A stretch of 64,000 nucleotides of DNA from a bacterium (GTDB lineage: Bacteria > Patescibacteriota > Minisyncoccia > JACQLN01), in the NCBI GenBank assembly GCA_030697795.1, contig JAUYOV010000004.1, positions 211,334 to 275,333 of the forward strand, given 5' to 3'. The notes under the pieces are model-generated. The model had not been told where the DNA came from and did not search any database. It saw only the letters and a list, made by a program, of their open reading frames with translations. Position numbers and translations under genes: made by a program. Of this stretch, positions 9,170 through 61,272 are shown piece by piece. Position 1 is the first letter of the stretch. Every line of letters begins with the position of its first letter.

Positions 9170-10406
9170 ATTTACTAGCTAAACTTTTAACCTCTTCTCT
9201 TATTTTACCTAAATCTTCTTTATTTTGTAAGGTTTTGTGTATAAGTTCAGCTATTTTTTTCATTTCTTCTTCTTTCATACCCCTCGTAGTTACCGCAGGC
9301 ATACCAATTCTTATGCCCGAAGGATCCCACGGCTTACGCGGATCAAATGGAATCATATTTTTATTAACTACAATGCCCACTTCTTCTAGTTTTTTTCCAG
9401 CCTCGTCACCGGTTAATTTTAAAGGCGTAACATCTACCAACATTAAATGATTATCTGTTCCGCCAGATACCACAGAAAAACCTAGATTAGTTAATTCTGA
9501 AGCTAATGCTTTTGAATTTTTAACAACTTGTTCTGCATATTCTTTGAAATTAGATTGACTAGCTTCTTCTAAAGAAATTCCGATAGCTGCGATCGTATGT
9601 AATTGTGGTCCGCCTTGCAAGCCCGGAAAAACTGCCTTGTCTATATTTTCCGATAATTCTTGTTTAGAAATAATTATGGCACCCCTTGGACCGCGCAAAG
9701 TTTTATGTGTAGTTGTAGTAACAATATCGGCATAAGGCAGTGGCGATGGATGCGCGCCGCCAATAACTAAGCCAGCAATGTGTGATAAATCCACCATCAA
9801 CTTTGCACCAACTGCATCGGCAATTTCTTTAAACTTTTTAAAATCTATTATTCTAGGATATGCTGTGGCGCCCGCCACAATTAGTTTAGGCTTAAATTTT
9901 TTAGCCTGATCCAAAATTAGTTCATAATCCAACAAACCATCTTTGCCTACGCCGTAATGTTCAAATTTAAATAATTTTCCGGTAAAGCTTACTTTATGCC
10001 CATGGGTTAAATGTCCGCCATGTTCTAAAGACATAGCCAAAACCTTATCTCCTAGCTCTAAAACCCCTAAATAGGCGGCCAAATTAGCAATGCTACCCGA
10101 ATAAGGTTGAACATTTACACCCCAGTCATTATTGGATATTCCAAAAACTTTATAAACCAAACTTTTTGTTTCATCTTCTATTTTATCTACAATTTTGTTG
10201 CCAAAATAATAACGCTGGTGCGATTTACCCTCGGCATATTTATTAGTTAAAACTGAACCTAAGGCTAATAAAACATTTTTTGAAACTAAATTTTCCGAAG
10301 GGATTAAATTTATAGTTTCATTTTGACGCTGTTCTTCTTCTTTTAAGAATTTGGCTATATTTGAATCCATCTTATGTAAAAATTTGATACTTCTGAGCGA
10401 CTTCAA
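9153..10406 (-). CDS. glyA: Serine hydroxymethyltransferase
   Basis: 417 aa, SHMT-like along its length, including the PLP-lysine region TTTTHKTLRGPRG. Confidence 0.9.
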   Translation of the reverse strand: MKSLRSIKFLHKMDSNIAKFLKEEEQRQNETINLIPSENLVSKNVLLALGSVLTNKYAEGKSHQRYYFGNKIVDKIEDETKSLVYKVFGISNNDWGVNVQPYSGSIANLAAYLGVLELGDKVLAMSLEHGGHLTHGHKVSFTGKLFKFEHYGVGKDGLLDYELILDQAKKFKPKLIVAGATAYPRIIDFKKFKEIADAVGAKLMVDLSHIAGLVIGGAHPSPLPYADIVTTTTHKTLRGPRGAIIISKQELSENIDKAVFPGLQGGPQLHTIAAIGISLEEASQSNFKEYAEQVVKNSKALASELTNLGFSVVSGGTDNHLMLVDVTPLKLTGDEAGKKLEEVGIVVNKNMIPFDPRKPWDPSGIRIGMPAVTTRGMKEEEMKKIAELIHKTLQNKEDLGKIREEVKSLASKFVFNG

Positions 10407-54967: not shown

Positions 54968-55204
54968 CTATATAGTGCTTACCGGTAAATATTTAGAAGT
55001 TAGCCAAAAAGCTATCGCGCCCCAAATTGCAGCGAGAGGCAAAATAATACGACCGTATTTTTTTAAACCCGGTTCGGTTGTGTATAAAGCACCCAAAATT
55101 ACACCCGAAAAAATTGGGTTAAGCGCAGTGATGATTAAACCAGCCCACAGCCATTTTTTAGACCTGAGCCCGTCGATAGGTTTTGAAAAATTTTGTTCAA
55201 TCAT
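54968..55204 (-). CDS. Small membrane protein (hypothetical)
   Basis: ORF with 2 TM helices. Confidence 0.2.
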   Translation of the reverse strand: MIEQNFSKPIDGLRSKKWLWAGLIITALNPIFSGVILGALYTTEPGLKKYGRIILPLAAIWGAIAFWLTSKYLPVSTI

Positions 55205-55209
55205 TACAC

Positions 55210-55632
55210 TTAATAGTGACTTTCTCTTATCGCAACAACATAAAAAACCCTATCAATAAGAAAAAAGAAAAGACGGCCTTTGTCATAATCAATTTTTGCT
55301 TCTTTTATTTCAGCATCGGGTAAATCAAACAACCCTTTATATAATTTCCTGTAGTTTCCACTATTATTAATAGGGGTAATTTCTAATTTTGGTAAACATT
55401 TTTTAAAATCATCTTCGGCTTTTATATTCACCCCTACATCACGCACTACACGAAGTGCTTTTTTTGCCATTTTAGGATTCATTCCATCAAGTTGGCACTC
55501 GCCACGATTATAGCGTTCAAATGAAATGAGTAGAGGTTTTGCCTCCGGAGCTTCTTCTGGTTGAGGAATTTCAGTTACCCTCTGGGGTATTGAACTTATC
55601 GATTGTTCTTCTTCGGGTTTTGGAATTGTCAT
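55210..55632 (-). CDS. Putative toxin partner of the Panacea-domain protein; RelE/ParE-like C-terminus with Pro/Glu-rich N-terminal extension
   Basis: C-terminal GRLFFFLIDRVFYVVAIRESHY resembles the RelE/ParE C-terminus. Immediately downstream of the DUF4065 gene. Confidence 0.35.
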   Translation of the reverse strand: MTIPKPEEEQSISSIPQRVTEIPQPEEAPEAKPLLISFERYNRGECQLDGMNPKMAKKALRVVRDVGVNIKAEDDFKKCLPKLEITPINNSGNYRKLYKGLFDLPDAEIKEAKIDYDKGRLFFFLIDRVFYVVAIRESHY

Positions 55633-55647
55633 AGCTCAAAAACATTT

Positions 55648-56118
55648 TTATTGCTTGAGCTTAGCGGCATAAAACTCTTTCATGTCTTTGAGTGAAATCT
55701 CGTTTTCTGAACCAACGCTTGATTCAATTCCCTCGCGTGCTTTTTGCCACGGTATCTCAGAATGAGAAAGATACTCTAAGTAAGCTGCGTCTTTTTTACC
55801 ATACACTGACCACACTTGATCTAGAAAGTTCTTTATCTCCTGTGAAATCATCGCAATATCCTCACTACTCACGTTTTTAACAATTGGTCCAAAGCCAAAA
55901 TTTTTATATTCAAAATATACATCACGCACAGCAGGGCCGTGTACCCACGCCTCAATTTTTTCATTAAAAAGTTTTTTGTCACGCAAGACAAGAGACCACG
56001 CCTGTGCATAGTAAAGTAGTTTTTGCAGTTTCTTATTTGTAATTGCCTTTTTTTCATTACTTGCTTTCCAGAGAAAATAGTCAGCAATTTTTTGTGCCCT
56101 CAAAATTCCGCGAATCAT
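55648..56118 (-). CDS. Panacea-domain (DUF4065, SocA/PanA-like) antitoxin-type protein
   Basis: Signature KLQKLLYYAQAWSLVL...WVHGPAVRDVY, typical of DUF4065. Confidence 0.6.
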   Translation of the reverse strand: MIRGILRAQKIADYFLWKASNEKKAITNKKLQKLLYYAQAWSLVLRDKKLFNEKIEAWVHGPAVRDVYFEYKNFGFGPIVKNVSSEDIAMISQEIKNFLDQVWSVYGKKDAAYLEYLSHSEIPWQKAREGIESSVGSENEISLKDMKEFYAAKLKQ

Positions 56119-56229
56119 AATAAATTAAGTATAGCAAACAGCAAGCGGGTGGCAAAGCTATCGCCCGATATTACACTAAATTTACTCAACCTACTTTTGG
56201 ACGGACGGATTTTGCGGCGGAACTAAATT

Positions 56230-59200
56230 TTAATAAGATCGTGTTCCTTTACAATAAGGAAATTTTGAACAACCATAAAATTTACCGCGTCTACCATTTC
56301 TTAAAATCATTTTTGCTCCGCATCGTGGGCAGATTTTATTGCTCGTTACCGTTGTAACTCTTTTTGTCGTTCCCATAACCCTGTACGATGAACTATGTCC
56401 CTTACAATACTTACAGAACCTACCATATTTGGTAAGCAATGAGGAATCCCTGAAATCATTGGCAGTTCTTATCTCTTTGCATTTGGAGCACTCTTTCATA
56501 TCCCCATTTTGCAAGCCCTCAATCGTCTCATGAATATGATTTATTCTGCTATGTCTGCTCACTCCGTTTTTGATCAGATTTCCAATTCTCTCATTGAGCG
56601 TTGCAACGGGATCATCACCGACATTGAATTTATTGATTCGTAAAAACTTATAACCGTAACTTTCTAGAACCTTTTCTCGATAAACATGAGCTTCGGTGTG
56701 ATAATCCTCATAATTAAACTCATTTATCTCGTCAATGTTTGTAAAGTGTTCCCTAAATCCGTCATATTCAATGATTATTTTGTGTTCTTTATGGCCTTCA
56801 TCTTTATAAACTAGAAGGAAATCAACTATGTAGTTTGGGTGGTTATAAGTTTTTTCTAACTGCTTCAAGTACTTCCCTAATTCAAATTGGGGGATAAATT
56901 CAATGTCGTCTTTGTGCTTCTTCCAAAAGTCGGTTTTGTAAAACCAATCCATGACTTTTGGCTCCATCTTTGATTTCACATCGGTTTCGCTGATACTCCG
57001 TTCTTTCCTCGCTTCGGCAAGCACAAAGTAGTAATGTCGCAACGCTTCTCCGATTGAGCCATTATATTTTTCAATTGGCTTGCTCAACACAAAGTACATA
57101 CACTCTTTAGCGCGACTCAACCCAACATTTAATCTTTGGGCTTTTATTTTTCCATCCTCTTCAATATCAACATTGCTCAAATCTTTAATAAACACGCCCC
57201 AAAGATGGTCGTCTTCTTCAGTGGCAACCAACGAGTAATAAATAATGTCTCTTTCCTCGCCCTGACAAGTGTCAAAAGTCATTATTTTCAGATTCAATTT
57301 GTCGTAGAAATAATCCTTTTCGAGTAACTTGCTAATCATCTCTACAAGAAGTTTCTGCTGATTGGTGTGCGGGGTGATTATTCCAACGCTTGAATTACTA
57401 TCAGCCTTTTTTAGCCTTTGTAATTCCGAGATAATAAATTCCGCTTCAAGAGAATTGGTATTTTGGGTTAATTCTTTTTTACCATCATGCTTGATAAAGG
57501 AGAAACGCAAAACTTCATCAATTGCTTTTCCTCTTATTTTCATCACCTGCAAGCTGTCTTGATAAAAGTACTTATTTGAATAGGAGATAATCTCTTTATA
57601 ACCCCTGAAGTGTTTGAGGAGTTGAGTATTGTAGTTAGTGATGAAAGAGCAAAACTCAAGAATAGATGTTTTGATGTTGAATTTACCAAGCTTAACCATA
57701 TTGGTTTCCTCATCAGAAACACACTCAAGGAAAGTAGCTTTAAGATCGTTAAGATATTCTCTATTTGTTTCAGTGCGCGCCTGTGCCGACTTGACGTTGC
57801 TGAACTGTTTCTTATCACCAAGAATGAGAACTTTCTTGGCCCGTAATAATGCCGGAAATGCCTGAGCGATGCTAACCTGCGACGCCTCATCAATGATTAC
57901 CAAATCAAATATCTCCGGCTCTAGCGGGATGTACTCTGCATAATCCCGTATACCAGCTAAAATACACGGAAATGCCTCTTTCAGTTTTAGAAATTTATCT
58001 CTCGGAAATCTTCGTTTTTGTCTGATAATGTCTCGCAACGCTGTGGCCGTTGTGCGGTTATTATCGTAGAAGTCAATCAACCTGTTATCCAAAAGATGGG
58101 TCATTTGAGCCGTTACTAACTCCTCTATACTTCGTTTTTGTCCCGCATAATTTAGTGGTGGAATATCTGCAAAATTCTTTTTTATTTTGTGTTGAAGTCC
58201 CAAGTATCTAATAAGTTTTGAGTATTCGAGATCGCCTACCTTCAAAAGCTCATTATCAATAAATGTGCTGATATTCGTTTCATCTATTTTTGTTTGCTTA
58301 GAAAATTTTGGATAACGATTGAGTAGAGAAACAATATAGGTTAAGTCTTCAAAACTGTCCGTAATAATCTCCAAGAAACTAGAGTATTCTTTCAAAGATT
58401 CTATTTCCGCTAAGAAATTATCGTCGTTTAGAAATTTCTCTATACCATCAACGCTTGTCTTATAGTTTTTGTTGCTAATCGCTTTATATTTGGTGAAAAC
58501 AGAAACGGCACTCCCTGCGATCTCAAGCTTCCTTAGTTCCTCAATATCTTTTGGAGCGAATGATTTATACCAATCAGTTTTTTGAAGTTGAGCGATTGCA
58601 GATTGATATTTATTTGTCGAAGTAAATAAGGCCTTGAATTTTTCTTGAAGCTCGCTGTCTTTGATAAGAGTGGTAAGGGATTCGATCAAATCAATCGTTC
58701 TGATAGTTGTGGGAAGGTCTTTTTTATAGTCAAAAATTTGTTCGGCAACCAGTTTAATCTCTTTCAATTTCTCGGTTAGTTTTTGAGGGGCGTTCAATTC
58801 TTCCGCTTTGAATGTCTTTTTAAATTTTGCGTTTAGTTCCTCAACCTGCTTGCCACGGAACAGATAGCCAAGGATAGGGAGTTTTAAACTCTCGTATTGT
58901 TCTATGAACCATTGAATTTGCTTGTAATTAAAATCAGAAAAAGTTGCTGATATTGATAATTCTGACAATCTCGGTCCAAAAGTTGAATTGAGATTTTCTA
59001 TACAATTTTTTATGAAAAACAAAACTTTCAACAAACTATCTACGTCTGCGAATTGTCTCGGCTTTTCAGTGCCGAGTAAGTTATATATAGTATCGTGTGA
59101 AGAAAGTTCGTTTCTGTAATTTTCAATTTCTAAAAACGACTCACCGCTCAAAGTGAAATCGGTTTTATCTTTATGTAAGCGAGTCGCTTTGTCCCGAATA

Positions 59201-61272
59201 TCAGCAACTTGAAAATATTTATCATAGTCGGTTTGAAATTTTTTCAAGAGAGATAATGCCGACTTTATGTTATTAATAAGTAACTCTGACGGTTTTGCTT
59301 TGGGGTCAAAATCATAATCATAATCTTTCAATTTTACTTTCAAATCTACAAGAATAGATCGTAGTTCTTCTAACTCGCCTGCTGATTCCGGATTCTTTAT
59401 CGCCTCATCAATATCAAGCGGAAACCCCTTTTCTTCAAAATAAGTTTCGAGGTCAATCAACTCGTGAATTTCTTTAAGATCAATTTCTCCGTAGGCCAAA
59501 ATCTCCGCTTGTAAATCTTCTTTAAGAGTATTTCCAACTTTTTCAATATCTGACTCAAGCGCGTCATGATTTTTCTTTACTGCCCGCAGATTGGTTCTGA
59601 TATTCTCAATTGCTGTTGTTGCCAAAATTTTACTGTAAGTACTCCCTGTTTTGCCAAGCCGTAAAATTGGATTTTGGAAATTCTTATCATACCGTACTGT
59701 GTTTAGTGTTTCGGTTATCTTATCCTCAACAACATCAAGAGCTTCTTTTTTATCAGAAAGAACCAAGACGGATTGATCCTTCAAAATATGATCAAAGGCA
59801 ATCGCGGTAATTGTATGACTTTTTCCTGTCCCCGGAGGTCCCTCTACGATGATATATTTACAATCGTCTTTTTTGATGGCTGACAAAATTTGACGTTGCT
59901 CACTATTGAGCGGAATTGGACTGTTGAAAACAAGGCGTTCGCTTGTTTCGGTTTCGTCCCACTCATCGTCTATAACTTTTTTGAAGGACTTGGGCTCGCT
60001 ATAAATGAAATCATCAATGAGTTGATTAAATGCTCCCGCCAAAATACTATCTCCAGAGGCAAGAAGTTTTAGAATTTCTTCATAGTCATTAACCAACGCC
60101 TCGTCCGACTTATCAAACAGGGCAATATAGCGGGCGTTTGACGCTCTCACCCAAAGACTTTTTGCAATTTGGTGCTCTGTGTCTGTTATGCTAATTTTCT
60201 TATCAAGTTTAAAAAAGTTGGTAATCTCATTCATTATCTCGCCAACCAATTCTCCAAAATTTTCTTTATATTGGGCAAGATAAATTATTCGATCCGTTAT
60301 GCTTTGTAGATTTCCGTGATGATTAGTTTCTTTGTTATATTCTTGTGTAATATATTCAAGTGCTTTCTTGTTTATATAAACTTGCGAATCAAATTCGACG
60401 GTCAGTGCGTCGCTCTGTTTGCTGACAGAAAACGGGATATAGAAAATTGGGTATTTAGCATTGTTGAAAGTTATATCGCAAAAGTAAAGATAAAATTCTT
60501 GCTTATCTAAAATCGTCCTATTTCTTTCCATCTCGTATATTTCGGCAAATAGATCGCCGACTTGGAAATTCTCGAAGAAAGAAACAATACTTGATTTAAC
60601 ATCTTTGACTTCAAAAACTTCTTTTACTTGCTTTGCAACATCAACTTCTGTCTTCGCCAAAATCAGTTTTACAATTTCAGAAATTTTGTTTTCTAATGGC
60701 GCTACAAGAACAGCGGTTAGTTCTTCTTCCATGAGATAGATACTGTTTTCATCGCCTAAATTCAAATTTTCCAGCGACTTTTCAAGGTTGCTGATAAACG
60801 GCAATACGAGTTCGGCTTTGATTACTTTTTCTGTTACTTCAAGAGAGGTCGTAAGAGCTTGATCATATTCTTTTAGGTGAGGTGCAGTCGATTTTTCTAT
60901 TTCCTCGGCTAACTTATCAATTATTTCCGAAATTTGCTTGGGCTTGATTTTGCCTAATTGTAGCCCAATAAGACCAAGGAGATTTTTAGGGATATTTGTT
61001 CTATAAACTCCCGCTTGAATGGTATTCAAAACATTAAAATCGAAGCCGCGAGTAACGGCTTTCCATGCGAGCGTATTGAAAGATGGGTATTTGTTAAGAT
61101 TAAGACCAATGAGCAAATTTGAACTATTGCGTAATTGGATGCTTCTTTTTGGGTTCCGCCGTTTATGGAAATCTGTTTCCAAGAAATCCATAAAATACTT
61201 GGCAACTTCTTTGATAAAAGCCAAGCCGTTATTTTGATTTTGTTCCGTTTTGTTACCTATTTTGTTTGCCAT
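56230..61272 (-). CDS. Giant (1680 aa) Upf1-like SF1 helicase with C-terminal DUF559/Vsr-like endonuclease fold and topoisomerase-type C4 zinc ribbons
   Basis: Walker A IIVEGPPGTGKSHTI with an AAA_11/AAA_12-like core. C-terminal IIIEYDGFREHF resembles DUF559. Final CPRCGAKMILRNGRRGKFYGCSKFPYCKGTR matches a Topo-type zinc ribbon. Confidence 0.75.
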   Translation of the reverse strand: MANKIGNKTEQNQNNGLAFIKEVAKYFMDFLETDFHKRRNPKRSIQLRNSSNLLIGLNLNKYPSFNTLAWKAVTRGFDFNVLNTIQAGVYRTNIPKNLLGLIGLQLGKIKPKQISEIIDKLAEEIEKSTAPHLKEYDQALTTSLEVTEKVIKAELVLPFISNLEKSLENLNLGDENSIYLMEEELTAVLVAPLENKISEIVKLILAKTEVDVAKQVKEVFEVKDVKSSIVSFFENFQVGDLFAEIYEMERNRTILDKQEFYLYFCDITFNNAKYPIFYIPFSVSKQSDALTVEFDSQVYINKKALEYITQEYNKETNHHGNLQSITDRIIYLAQYKENFGELVGEIMNEITNFFKLDKKISITDTEHQIAKSLWVRASNARYIALFDKSDEALVNDYEEILKLLASGDSILAGAFNQLIDDFIYSEPKSFKKVIDDEWDETETSERLVFNSPIPLNSEQRQILSAIKKDDCKYIIVEGPPGTGKSHTITAIAFDHILKDQSVLVLSDKKEALDVVEDKITETLNTVRYDKNFQNPILRLGKTGSTYSKILATTAIENIRTNLRAVKKNHDALESDIEKVGNTLKEDLQAEILAYGEIDLKEIHELIDLETYFEEKGFPLDIDEAIKNPESAGELEELRSILVDLKVKLKDYDYDFDPKAKPSELLINNIKSALSLLKKFQTDYDKYFQVADIRDKATRLHKDKTDFTLSGESFLEIENYRNELSSHDTIYNLLGTEKPRQFADVDSLLKVLFFIKNCIENLNSTFGPRLSELSISATFSDFNYKQIQWFIEQYESLKLPILGYLFRGKQVEELNAKFKKTFKAEELNAPQKLTEKLKEIKLVAEQIFDYKKDLPTTIRTIDLIESLTTLIKDSELQEKFKALFTSTNKYQSAIAQLQKTDWYKSFAPKDIEELRKLEIAGSAVSVFTKYKAISNKNYKTSVDGIEKFLNDDNFLAEIESLKEYSSFLEIITDSFEDLTYIVSLLNRYPKFSKQTKIDETNISTFIDNELLKVGDLEYSKLIRYLGLQHKIKKNFADIPPLNYAGQKRSIEELVTAQMTHLLDNRLIDFYDNNRTTATALRDIIRQKRRFPRDKFLKLKEAFPCILAGIRDYAEYIPLEPEIFDLVIIDEASQVSIAQAFPALLRAKKVLILGDKKQFSNVKSAQARTETNREYLNDLKATFLECVSDEETNMVKLGKFNIKTSILEFCSFITNYNTQLLKHFRGYKEIISYSNKYFYQDSLQVMKIRGKAIDEVLRFSFIKHDGKKELTQNTNSLEAEFIISELQRLKKADSNSSVGIITPHTNQQKLLVEMISKLLEKDYFYDKLNLKIMTFDTCQGEERDIIYYSLVATEEDDHLWGVFIKDLSNVDIEEDGKIKAQRLNVGLSRAKECMYFVLSKPIEKYNGSIGEALRHYYFVLAEARKERSISETDVKSKMEPKVMDWFYKTDFWKKHKDDIEFIPQFELGKYLKQLEKTYNHPNYIVDFLLVYKDEGHKEHKIIIEYDGFREHFTNIDEINEFNYEDYHTEAHVYREKVLESYGYKFLRINKFNVGDDPVATLNERIGNLIKNGVSRHSRINHIHETIEGLQNGDMKECSKCKEIRTANDFRDSSLLTKYGRFCKYCKGHSSSYRVMGTTKRVTTVTSNKICPRCGAKMILRNGRRGKFYGCSKFPYCKGTRSY

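Follow-up and report, generated by a model that had tools for sequence, protein, structure and literature searches.

Two adjacent genes on the minus strand of the window, a stretch of 64,000 nucleotides (nt) of DNA from an uncultured, ultra-small patescibacterium, very probably form a self-contained, mobile PanA-PanT cassette, a toxin-antitoxin system of the type II-like kind, extending from about 56160 to 55210. The first gene, panA (55648..56118), begins with ATG and encodes a stand-alone Panacea (DUF4065) protein of 156 amino acids (aa), the putative antitoxin; its downstream partner panT (55210..55632), also with an ATG start, encodes the putative toxin of 140 aa. A module of this kind had been proposed in an earlier, sequence-only reading of the DNA, which placed the two open reading frames 15 nt apart, and both exist exactly so on the minus strand. 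The proposal is supported by the identity of the Panacea domain, by the predicted RelE fold of the partner and by the strict pairing of the two genes. The architecture is not new, since Panacea antitoxins are known with dozens of unrelated toxins, RelE/ParE-like ones included. What is added is an unannotated family of toxins with a predicted RelE fold, which forms 270 or more clusters at 50% identity and is always accompanied by one clade of PanA; the 140-aa "hypothetical protein" may thus be annotated as a putative RelE-superfamily PanT toxin.

Conservation of the panA-panT pair

The sequence-only reading had recognised PanA by the motif KLQKLLYYAQAWSLVL...WVHGPAVRDVY. The motif is present, and the assignment was borne out by a hidden Markov model search, in which PanA matched Pfam PF13274 (SocA_Panacea) at E=2.2e-19, scoring 70.9 bits where the gathering score is 25.7 bits; residues 31-125 of PanA cover model positions 1-113 of 113. 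In the PHROGs the protein matches phrog_1281 (E=6e-47). The only NCBIfam model matched is SocA_antitoxin, at 67.2 bits (E 1.4e-18), where the equivalog cut-off is 190 bits. With PF13274 matched well above its threshold and the SocA equivalog score far below its cut-off, PanA is therefore a Panacea protein and not an orthologue of SocA. No helix-turn-helix (HTH), PAD1 or ZBD accessory domain is found in it, nor any accessory N-terminal domain.

The 140-aa reading frame is a real conserved gene. PanT has 37 close homologues at 51% identity or above, mostly of 147 aa, and when 1.84 billion representatives were searched with a profile, 270 clusters (50% identity) were returned at E<=1e-3, 132 of them at E<=1e-10. 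The cluster representatives are nearly all 135-190 aa long and align over their full length. Almost no new or named members were added when a 5.8-billion-protein set was searched with an alignment of 144 sequences (alignment A2); tblastn found nothing in 50,697 phage records and one chance match only in 72,556 plasmid records. All of the named sources of the family belong to the Candidate Phyla Radiation (CPR)/Patescibacteria.

Co-conservation, on which the sequence-only reading had made its own proposal depend, is clear. In all 13 other contexts examined, starting from either gene, panA and panT are adjacent and in the same order, among unrelated neighbours. From the PanT side a Panacea gene lies directly upstream in a Vogelbacteria genome (L001, the same genome as L007), in five metagenome contigs with P0007 (L002-L006), in Zambryskiibacteriota (L008), Saccharibacteria (L009) and Kazan (L010) genomes, and beside five distant family members, whose E-values in the profile search run from 5e-26 to 2e-9 (from L011-L020: L011-12, L014-16, L017-18, L019 and L020). 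From the PanA side, three long contigs bearing PanA proteins 61-68% identical to that of the window (L021, L022, L023) each have a PanT-family gene directly downstream (hmmsearch E 1e-56, 9e-43 and 1e-27), the third of which is frameshifted. Besides nine metagenome contexts, the pair and its order are found in four named lineages, Vogelbacteria, Zambryskiibacteriota, Saccharibacteria and Kazan. In the frameshifted case (L023, 690-1082) a frameshift disrupts the toxin homologue beyond about residue 90 and PanA, upstream of it, is intact, which looks like decay of the toxin.

Across 11 loci the pairwise identities of the two proteins correlate with r=0.90. Relative to the window copy, PanA at the 10 other loci is 46-80% identical and PanT 29-72%, PanA being the more conserved of the two. 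The distance between the genes is always small. In the window, as read directly from the DNA, 15 nt (55633..55647, minus strand) separate the stop of panA from the ATG of panT; this spacer has the sequence AAAATGTTTTTGAGC, with a weak Shine-Dalgarno-like GAG element; at other loci there are 2-11 nt between the genes, or an overlap of 4-32 nt.

It is also clear that the cassette consists of these two genes. Around the pair each locus has a different set of genes, with ribosomal-protein genes, a serine recombinase, tRNA synthetases and MreB among those seen, and no third gene is conserved across the loci compared. Aligned with L001, L002 and L008, the DNA is homologous from a promoter-like element some 45 nt upstream of panA as far as the toxin stop. 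The in-silico definition of a PanAT system used by Kurata et al. 2022 requires a partner within less than 100 nt, conservation in at least two species and the absence of a longer conserved operon, and all three features are seen here, with a gap of 15 nt in the window.

The pair might nevertheless not be a toxin-antitoxin system at all; PanT could be a non-toxic protein, for instance a regulatory or RNA-binding partner, and PanA a phage-associated protein of another function that simply accompanies it. Homologues of PanA are named in the JGI data just as "uncharacterized phage-associated protein", about half of DUF4065 proteins lie outside toxin-antitoxin-like loci, and the window copy of PanT lacks a C-terminal tail that is conserved in its family (see below). 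Such a reading is hard to reconcile with the strict gene order and tight spacing or overlaps retained between proteins down to 29% identity, and with the fit of the cassette to the in-silico definition of PanAT systems. Furthermore, the conserved residues of PanT are of a catalytic type and argue for an enzyme, and a frameshifted toxin beside an intact PanA, as in L023, is what would be expected if the toxin were costly. We regard a function outside toxin-antitoxin biology as quite unlikely.

Predicted fold and conserved residues of PanT

The sequence-only reading had described the C-terminal part of PanT, which does carry the quoted motif GRLFFFLIDRVFYVVAIRESHY at its C-terminus, as RelE/ParE-like. 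PanT has no match in Pfam, NCBIfam (none at E<=1), PADLOC or the PHROGs. Comparison with PDB sequences by phmmer and by two profile searches gave chance matches only (Mcl-1, ribosomal proteins), and BLASTP and hhalign comparisons with E. coli YoeB were negative (hhalign probability 0.1). Pfam scans of 144 family members gave one recurrent match, to Gp49, a family of the RelE/ParE clan; the match was weak and below threshold, occurring in 5 of the 144 with a best E of 0.0066. The curated sequence models of the RelE/ParE clan (ParE_toxin, YoeB, YafQ, HigB, Gp49 and similar) are none of them matched by PanT above threshold. The earlier description thus stands at the level of the fold, as given by structure prediction and Foldseek, but not at that of the sequence, where no curated model detects PanT.

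A first AlphaFold model, built with 22 close homologues, was mediocre (predicted local distance difference test, pLDDT, 66.7), and its Foldseek matches were almost exclusively toxins of the RelE/ParE superfamily. The second model, built with the 144-sequence alignment, is confident (pLDDT 86.3, predicted template modelling score 0.73); residues 31-140 have pLDDT values above 90 and the N-terminal 30-33 or so residues values of about 60 (57-63). The features of a RelE-type fold are a strand at the N-terminus, a helical hairpin and, at the C-terminus, an antiparallel sheet of three strands, and all of these are predicted in PanT. The core with this predicted fold, residues 34-140 (55210..55533 on the minus strand, with the stop codon), is basic, with an isoelectric point (pI) of 9.1.

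When the model was compared with known structures the highest score was that of Txp40, an insecticidal toxin (8.4), on whose structure a literature search found no paper, followed by archaeal RelE (7.8), YafQ (7.5), HP0894 (7.5), HigB (7.4 and 7.1), YoeB (7.1 and 6.8), RelE (6.3-5.7) and ParE (5.8-5.1). Barnase-type RNases scored lower, at about 3.4-4.1, and MqsR scored 3.1. Foldseek searches with the second model agree with these scores. It could be argued that PanT is a DNA-gyrase poison of the ParE type rather than an RNase; the fold and the neutralisation by PanA would be alike in both cases and the cellular target would be different. The RNase branch, however, consistently scores above ParE in the fold comparisons, and we consider a gyrase poison unlikely.

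Several residues, polar ones among them, are highly conserved. Y94 and H139 are invariant in the 144-sequence alignment, conservation is 90% or higher at M1, Y41, C46, E111, R120 and F122, with E111 and R120 at 94% or above, and the window copy carries every one of these. In the model H139 comes directly after the last strand and R120 starts the penultimate one. The catalytic acid and base residues of mRNA interferases are located on the face of the sheet and at the C-terminal end, for example E46, R65, H83 and Y84 of YoeB, and the catalytic histidines of YoeB, YafQ and HigB occupy the position after the last strand, to which H139 of the model may correspond. A resemblance between the ends of PanT (...AIRESHY) and YoeB (...ACRYHY) was considered and rejected, as the sequence comparisons with YoeB were negative; moreover, the tyrosine after H139 is variable in the family, so that the apparent "HY" match should not be over-read.

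On balance we lean towards PanT being an mRNA endonuclease of the RelE type, probably ribosome-dependent, that PanA neutralises by direct binding, a view based on fold, conservation and gene context. PanT would then be a toxin with the microbial-RNase fold of RelE, YoeB, YafQ and HigB; in its free form it would cleave mRNA in a ribosome-dependent manner and arrest translation, and in catalysis the invariant His139, located where the last beta-strand ends, would act with Arg120, Glu111 and Tyr94. PanT nevertheless differs from the RelE, YoeB, YafQ and HigB interferases in several respects. There is no detectable sequence similarity, and the core is larger, about 107 aa as against 85-95 aa. Two insertions are predicted, an additional loop at residues 38-52, in which Y41 and C46 are nearly invariant, and an additional helix at residues 92-98 that contains the invariant Y94; an N-terminal extension precedes the core. 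Finally, the antitoxin is a Panacea protein and not RelB, YefM, DinJ or HigA.

Termini of PanT, proposed neutralisation and expression

The N-terminal extension, residues 1-33 (55534..55632, minus strand), is acidic (pI 4.4), rich in proline and glutamate and predicted to be disordered, and it contains the motifs M-x-I-P, I-P and P-E. Among the 144 sequences the commonest residue is shared by 97% at M1, 67% at I3, 78% at P4, 71% at I15, 76% at P16 and 79% at E30. The motifs are thus kept in 67-79% of members, even where overall identity is about 30%. At the other end, most PanT proteins finish with a basic tail, H-x-E-T-x-K-x-R-R, and about 90% carry E-T-x-K-x-R-R. Around 9% end no more than two residues from the invariant histidine, and the window copy is among them; it stops right after H139-Y140 (55210..55215), where its relatives have GAA (Glu).

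PanA would neutralise PanT by direct protein-protein binding. Since PanA has no accessory neutralisation domain, either the Panacea domain itself or its conserved C-terminal segment would have to contact the toxin. The acidic, disordered extension of PanT is the best candidate for a handle to which PanA could bind; Ernits et al. 2023 (PMC10440598) found that a stand-alone Panacea domain neutralises directly, in one case via the unstructured N-terminus of the toxin, and the extension is therefore the most plausible handle here. A more far-reaching and tentative proposal, which we think possible rather than probable, is that PanT is a branch of the RelE superfamily restricted to CPR/Patescibacteria and obligately tied to one minimal clade of PanA, that the extension is a dedicated handle, and that PanA sequesters the toxin or, in the manner of SocA, hands it over to a protease. 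If the handle is real, the pair would be a minimal natural model for toxin recognition by the "hyperpromiscuous" Panacea domain, as well as an experimentally tractable toxin-antitoxin system from the CPR. With a disordered extension on one protein and no accessory domain on the other, it is in any case a compact test case for toxin recognition by the Panacea domain itself. The interest of the pair lies mainly in this conserved extension, in the minimal PanA and in the CPR-only sources.

Neutralisation by proteolysis would make the pair a type VI system like SocAB of Caulobacter. SocA, the founding member of Panacea, acts as a proteolytic adaptor; PanA would likewise pass PanT to ClpXP, with the disordered N-terminus or the basic tail as degron. 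The antitoxins of both systems have the DUF4065/Panacea domain, SocA_antitoxin is, as noted, the sole and best NCBIfam match of PanA, and PanT has conserved disordered termini with short linear motifs. Membership of SocAB takes a score at the SocA equivalog cut-off and a SocB-like toxin, and neither was found: PanA, at 67 as against 190 bits, is far under that cut-off, and PanT is RelE-like by its predicted fold, with no family match tying it to SocB, whereas SocB binds DnaN. Furthermore, all of the PanAT pairs tested by Kurata et al. (PMC8832971) gave stable complexes typical of type II. A SocAB-like mechanism is for these reasons very unlikely.

The cassette appears to have its own promoter. 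A promoter-like site at 56128..56155 on the minus strand consists of TTGCCA, 16 nt and TG-n-TATACT, an extended -10 element (10/12 in a consensus scan, plus the TG). When the locus is aligned with L001, L002 and L008, conservation of the DNA sets in with blocks of the form TTGCC-N16-TGcTAtAaT. In 8 of 11 loci the start of panA is preceded, at a distance of 6-10 nt, by a TG-n-TAnnnT box, which suggests a leaderless transcript. The distance from the end of the -10 element to the panA ATG is 9 nt in the window, which likewise suggests that the mRNA is leaderless or nearly so. The two genes would accordingly be expressed from this extended -10 promoter as a probably leaderless bicistronic transcript, panA first and panT second. 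No regulatory RNA was found at the locus with Rfam. A 13-nt inverted repeat (56121-56133 and 56172-56184, 85% complementary) brackets the promoter-like site and was considered as an operator; it is missing from six related loci and is therefore treated as chance.

Several observations weigh against this account of the cassette. PanA is basic (pI 9.2), not acidic, and lacks a DNA-binding domain; among the loci compared, no inverted repeat resembling an operator was found to be conserved. No sequence method ties the PanT of the window to any RelE/ParE family, and the correspondence of H139, R120 and E111 of the model with catalytic residues of YoeB, YafQ and HigB is drawn from secondary-structure position only. 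Lastly, because the window copy lacks the E-T-x-K-x-R-R tail it could be attenuated; this particular PanT may be a weakened toxin.

Known Panacea systems and neighbouring genes

PanAT systems were defined by Kurata et al. 2022 (PMC8832971), who validated nine pairs as complex-forming and type II-like. They list 88 toxin clusters. Toxins with a ParE domain are in the list, and one proteobacterial cluster that they left untested, T28, has HHpred probabilities of 77-89% to YoeB, ParE and RelE (PMC8832971). With T28 and the ParE-domain toxins already listed, the pairing of a Panacea protein and a RelE-fold toxin is of a kind known before. T28 is, by its published description, linked to PanA and weakly similar to YoeB, ParE and RelE.

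The window cassette is like other PanA-PanT systems in that the Panacea gene comes first with a small partner less than 100 nt downstream, in that the PanA is of the stand-alone ("noNTD") form, and in that a two-gene unit recurs across lineages while its neighbours change. It is unlike them in that this PanT family is without a Pfam, NCBIfam or PHROG model and was found only in metagenome-assembled genomes of CPR/Patescibacteria and in metagenomes, and in that PanT has a disordered Pro/Glu-rich N-terminal extension of about 33 aa and, mostly, the basic E-T-x-K-x-R-R tail. The survey of Kurata et al. was based on RefSeq (PMC8832971), and bacteria of the CPR, which are ultra-small, are under-sampled in RefSeq-based Panacea surveys. 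In the part of the published PanAT dataset used here there are no Parcubacteria-type CPR entries, and the Saccharibacteria entries in that part fall in another cluster, one that has an HTH-PanA. Given the RefSeq basis of the survey and this gap in the dataset, the PanT family seems uncatalogued; a literature search for Panacea systems in the CPR likewise found no paper.

Upstream of the cassette, a gene for a superfamily 1 helicase of 1680 aa (56230..61272, minus strand) ends 111 nt before panA. The sequence-only reading had remarked that the pair lies next to this giant helicase gene. The position is correct, but no helicase is a neighbour in any of the 13 other contexts (0/13) and a conserved promoter of its own precedes the pair, so that a functional link was rejected and the proximity is taken as incidental. 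The helicase has AAA_11/AAA_12 domains and a C-terminal zinc ribbon of the topoisomerase type, and its PADLOC matches are MkoC (2e-41), PDC-S37 (4e-40), MkoA (1e-37) and Hhe (1e-15). The protein may be a helicase of the defence type. On the other side, 6 nt after the panT stop, lies a reading frame of 78 aa with two predicted transmembrane segments (54968..55204, minus strand). It was considered as a further component and rejected, as nothing downstream of panT is conserved across the loci.

Two of the other loci have surroundings of their own interest. In the Vogelbacteria contig JAZDGA010000019.1 (L001, 3751-8444) the PanAT pair is found inside the ribosomal-protein (spc) operon, between the genes for L5 and S14. 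The insertion into this normally invariant operon is about 4.8 kb long, and the pair is accompanied in it by a His-Me/Endonuclease_7 protein, an N6/N4 DNA methyltransferase and two unknown reading frames. In one of the metagenome contigs (L002) the pair has a large serine recombinase (51-1613) 1.3 kb upstream and, about 5.5 kb downstream, another, weak ParE_toxin pair (9334-9817); these surroundings are consistent with a mobile or accessory region.
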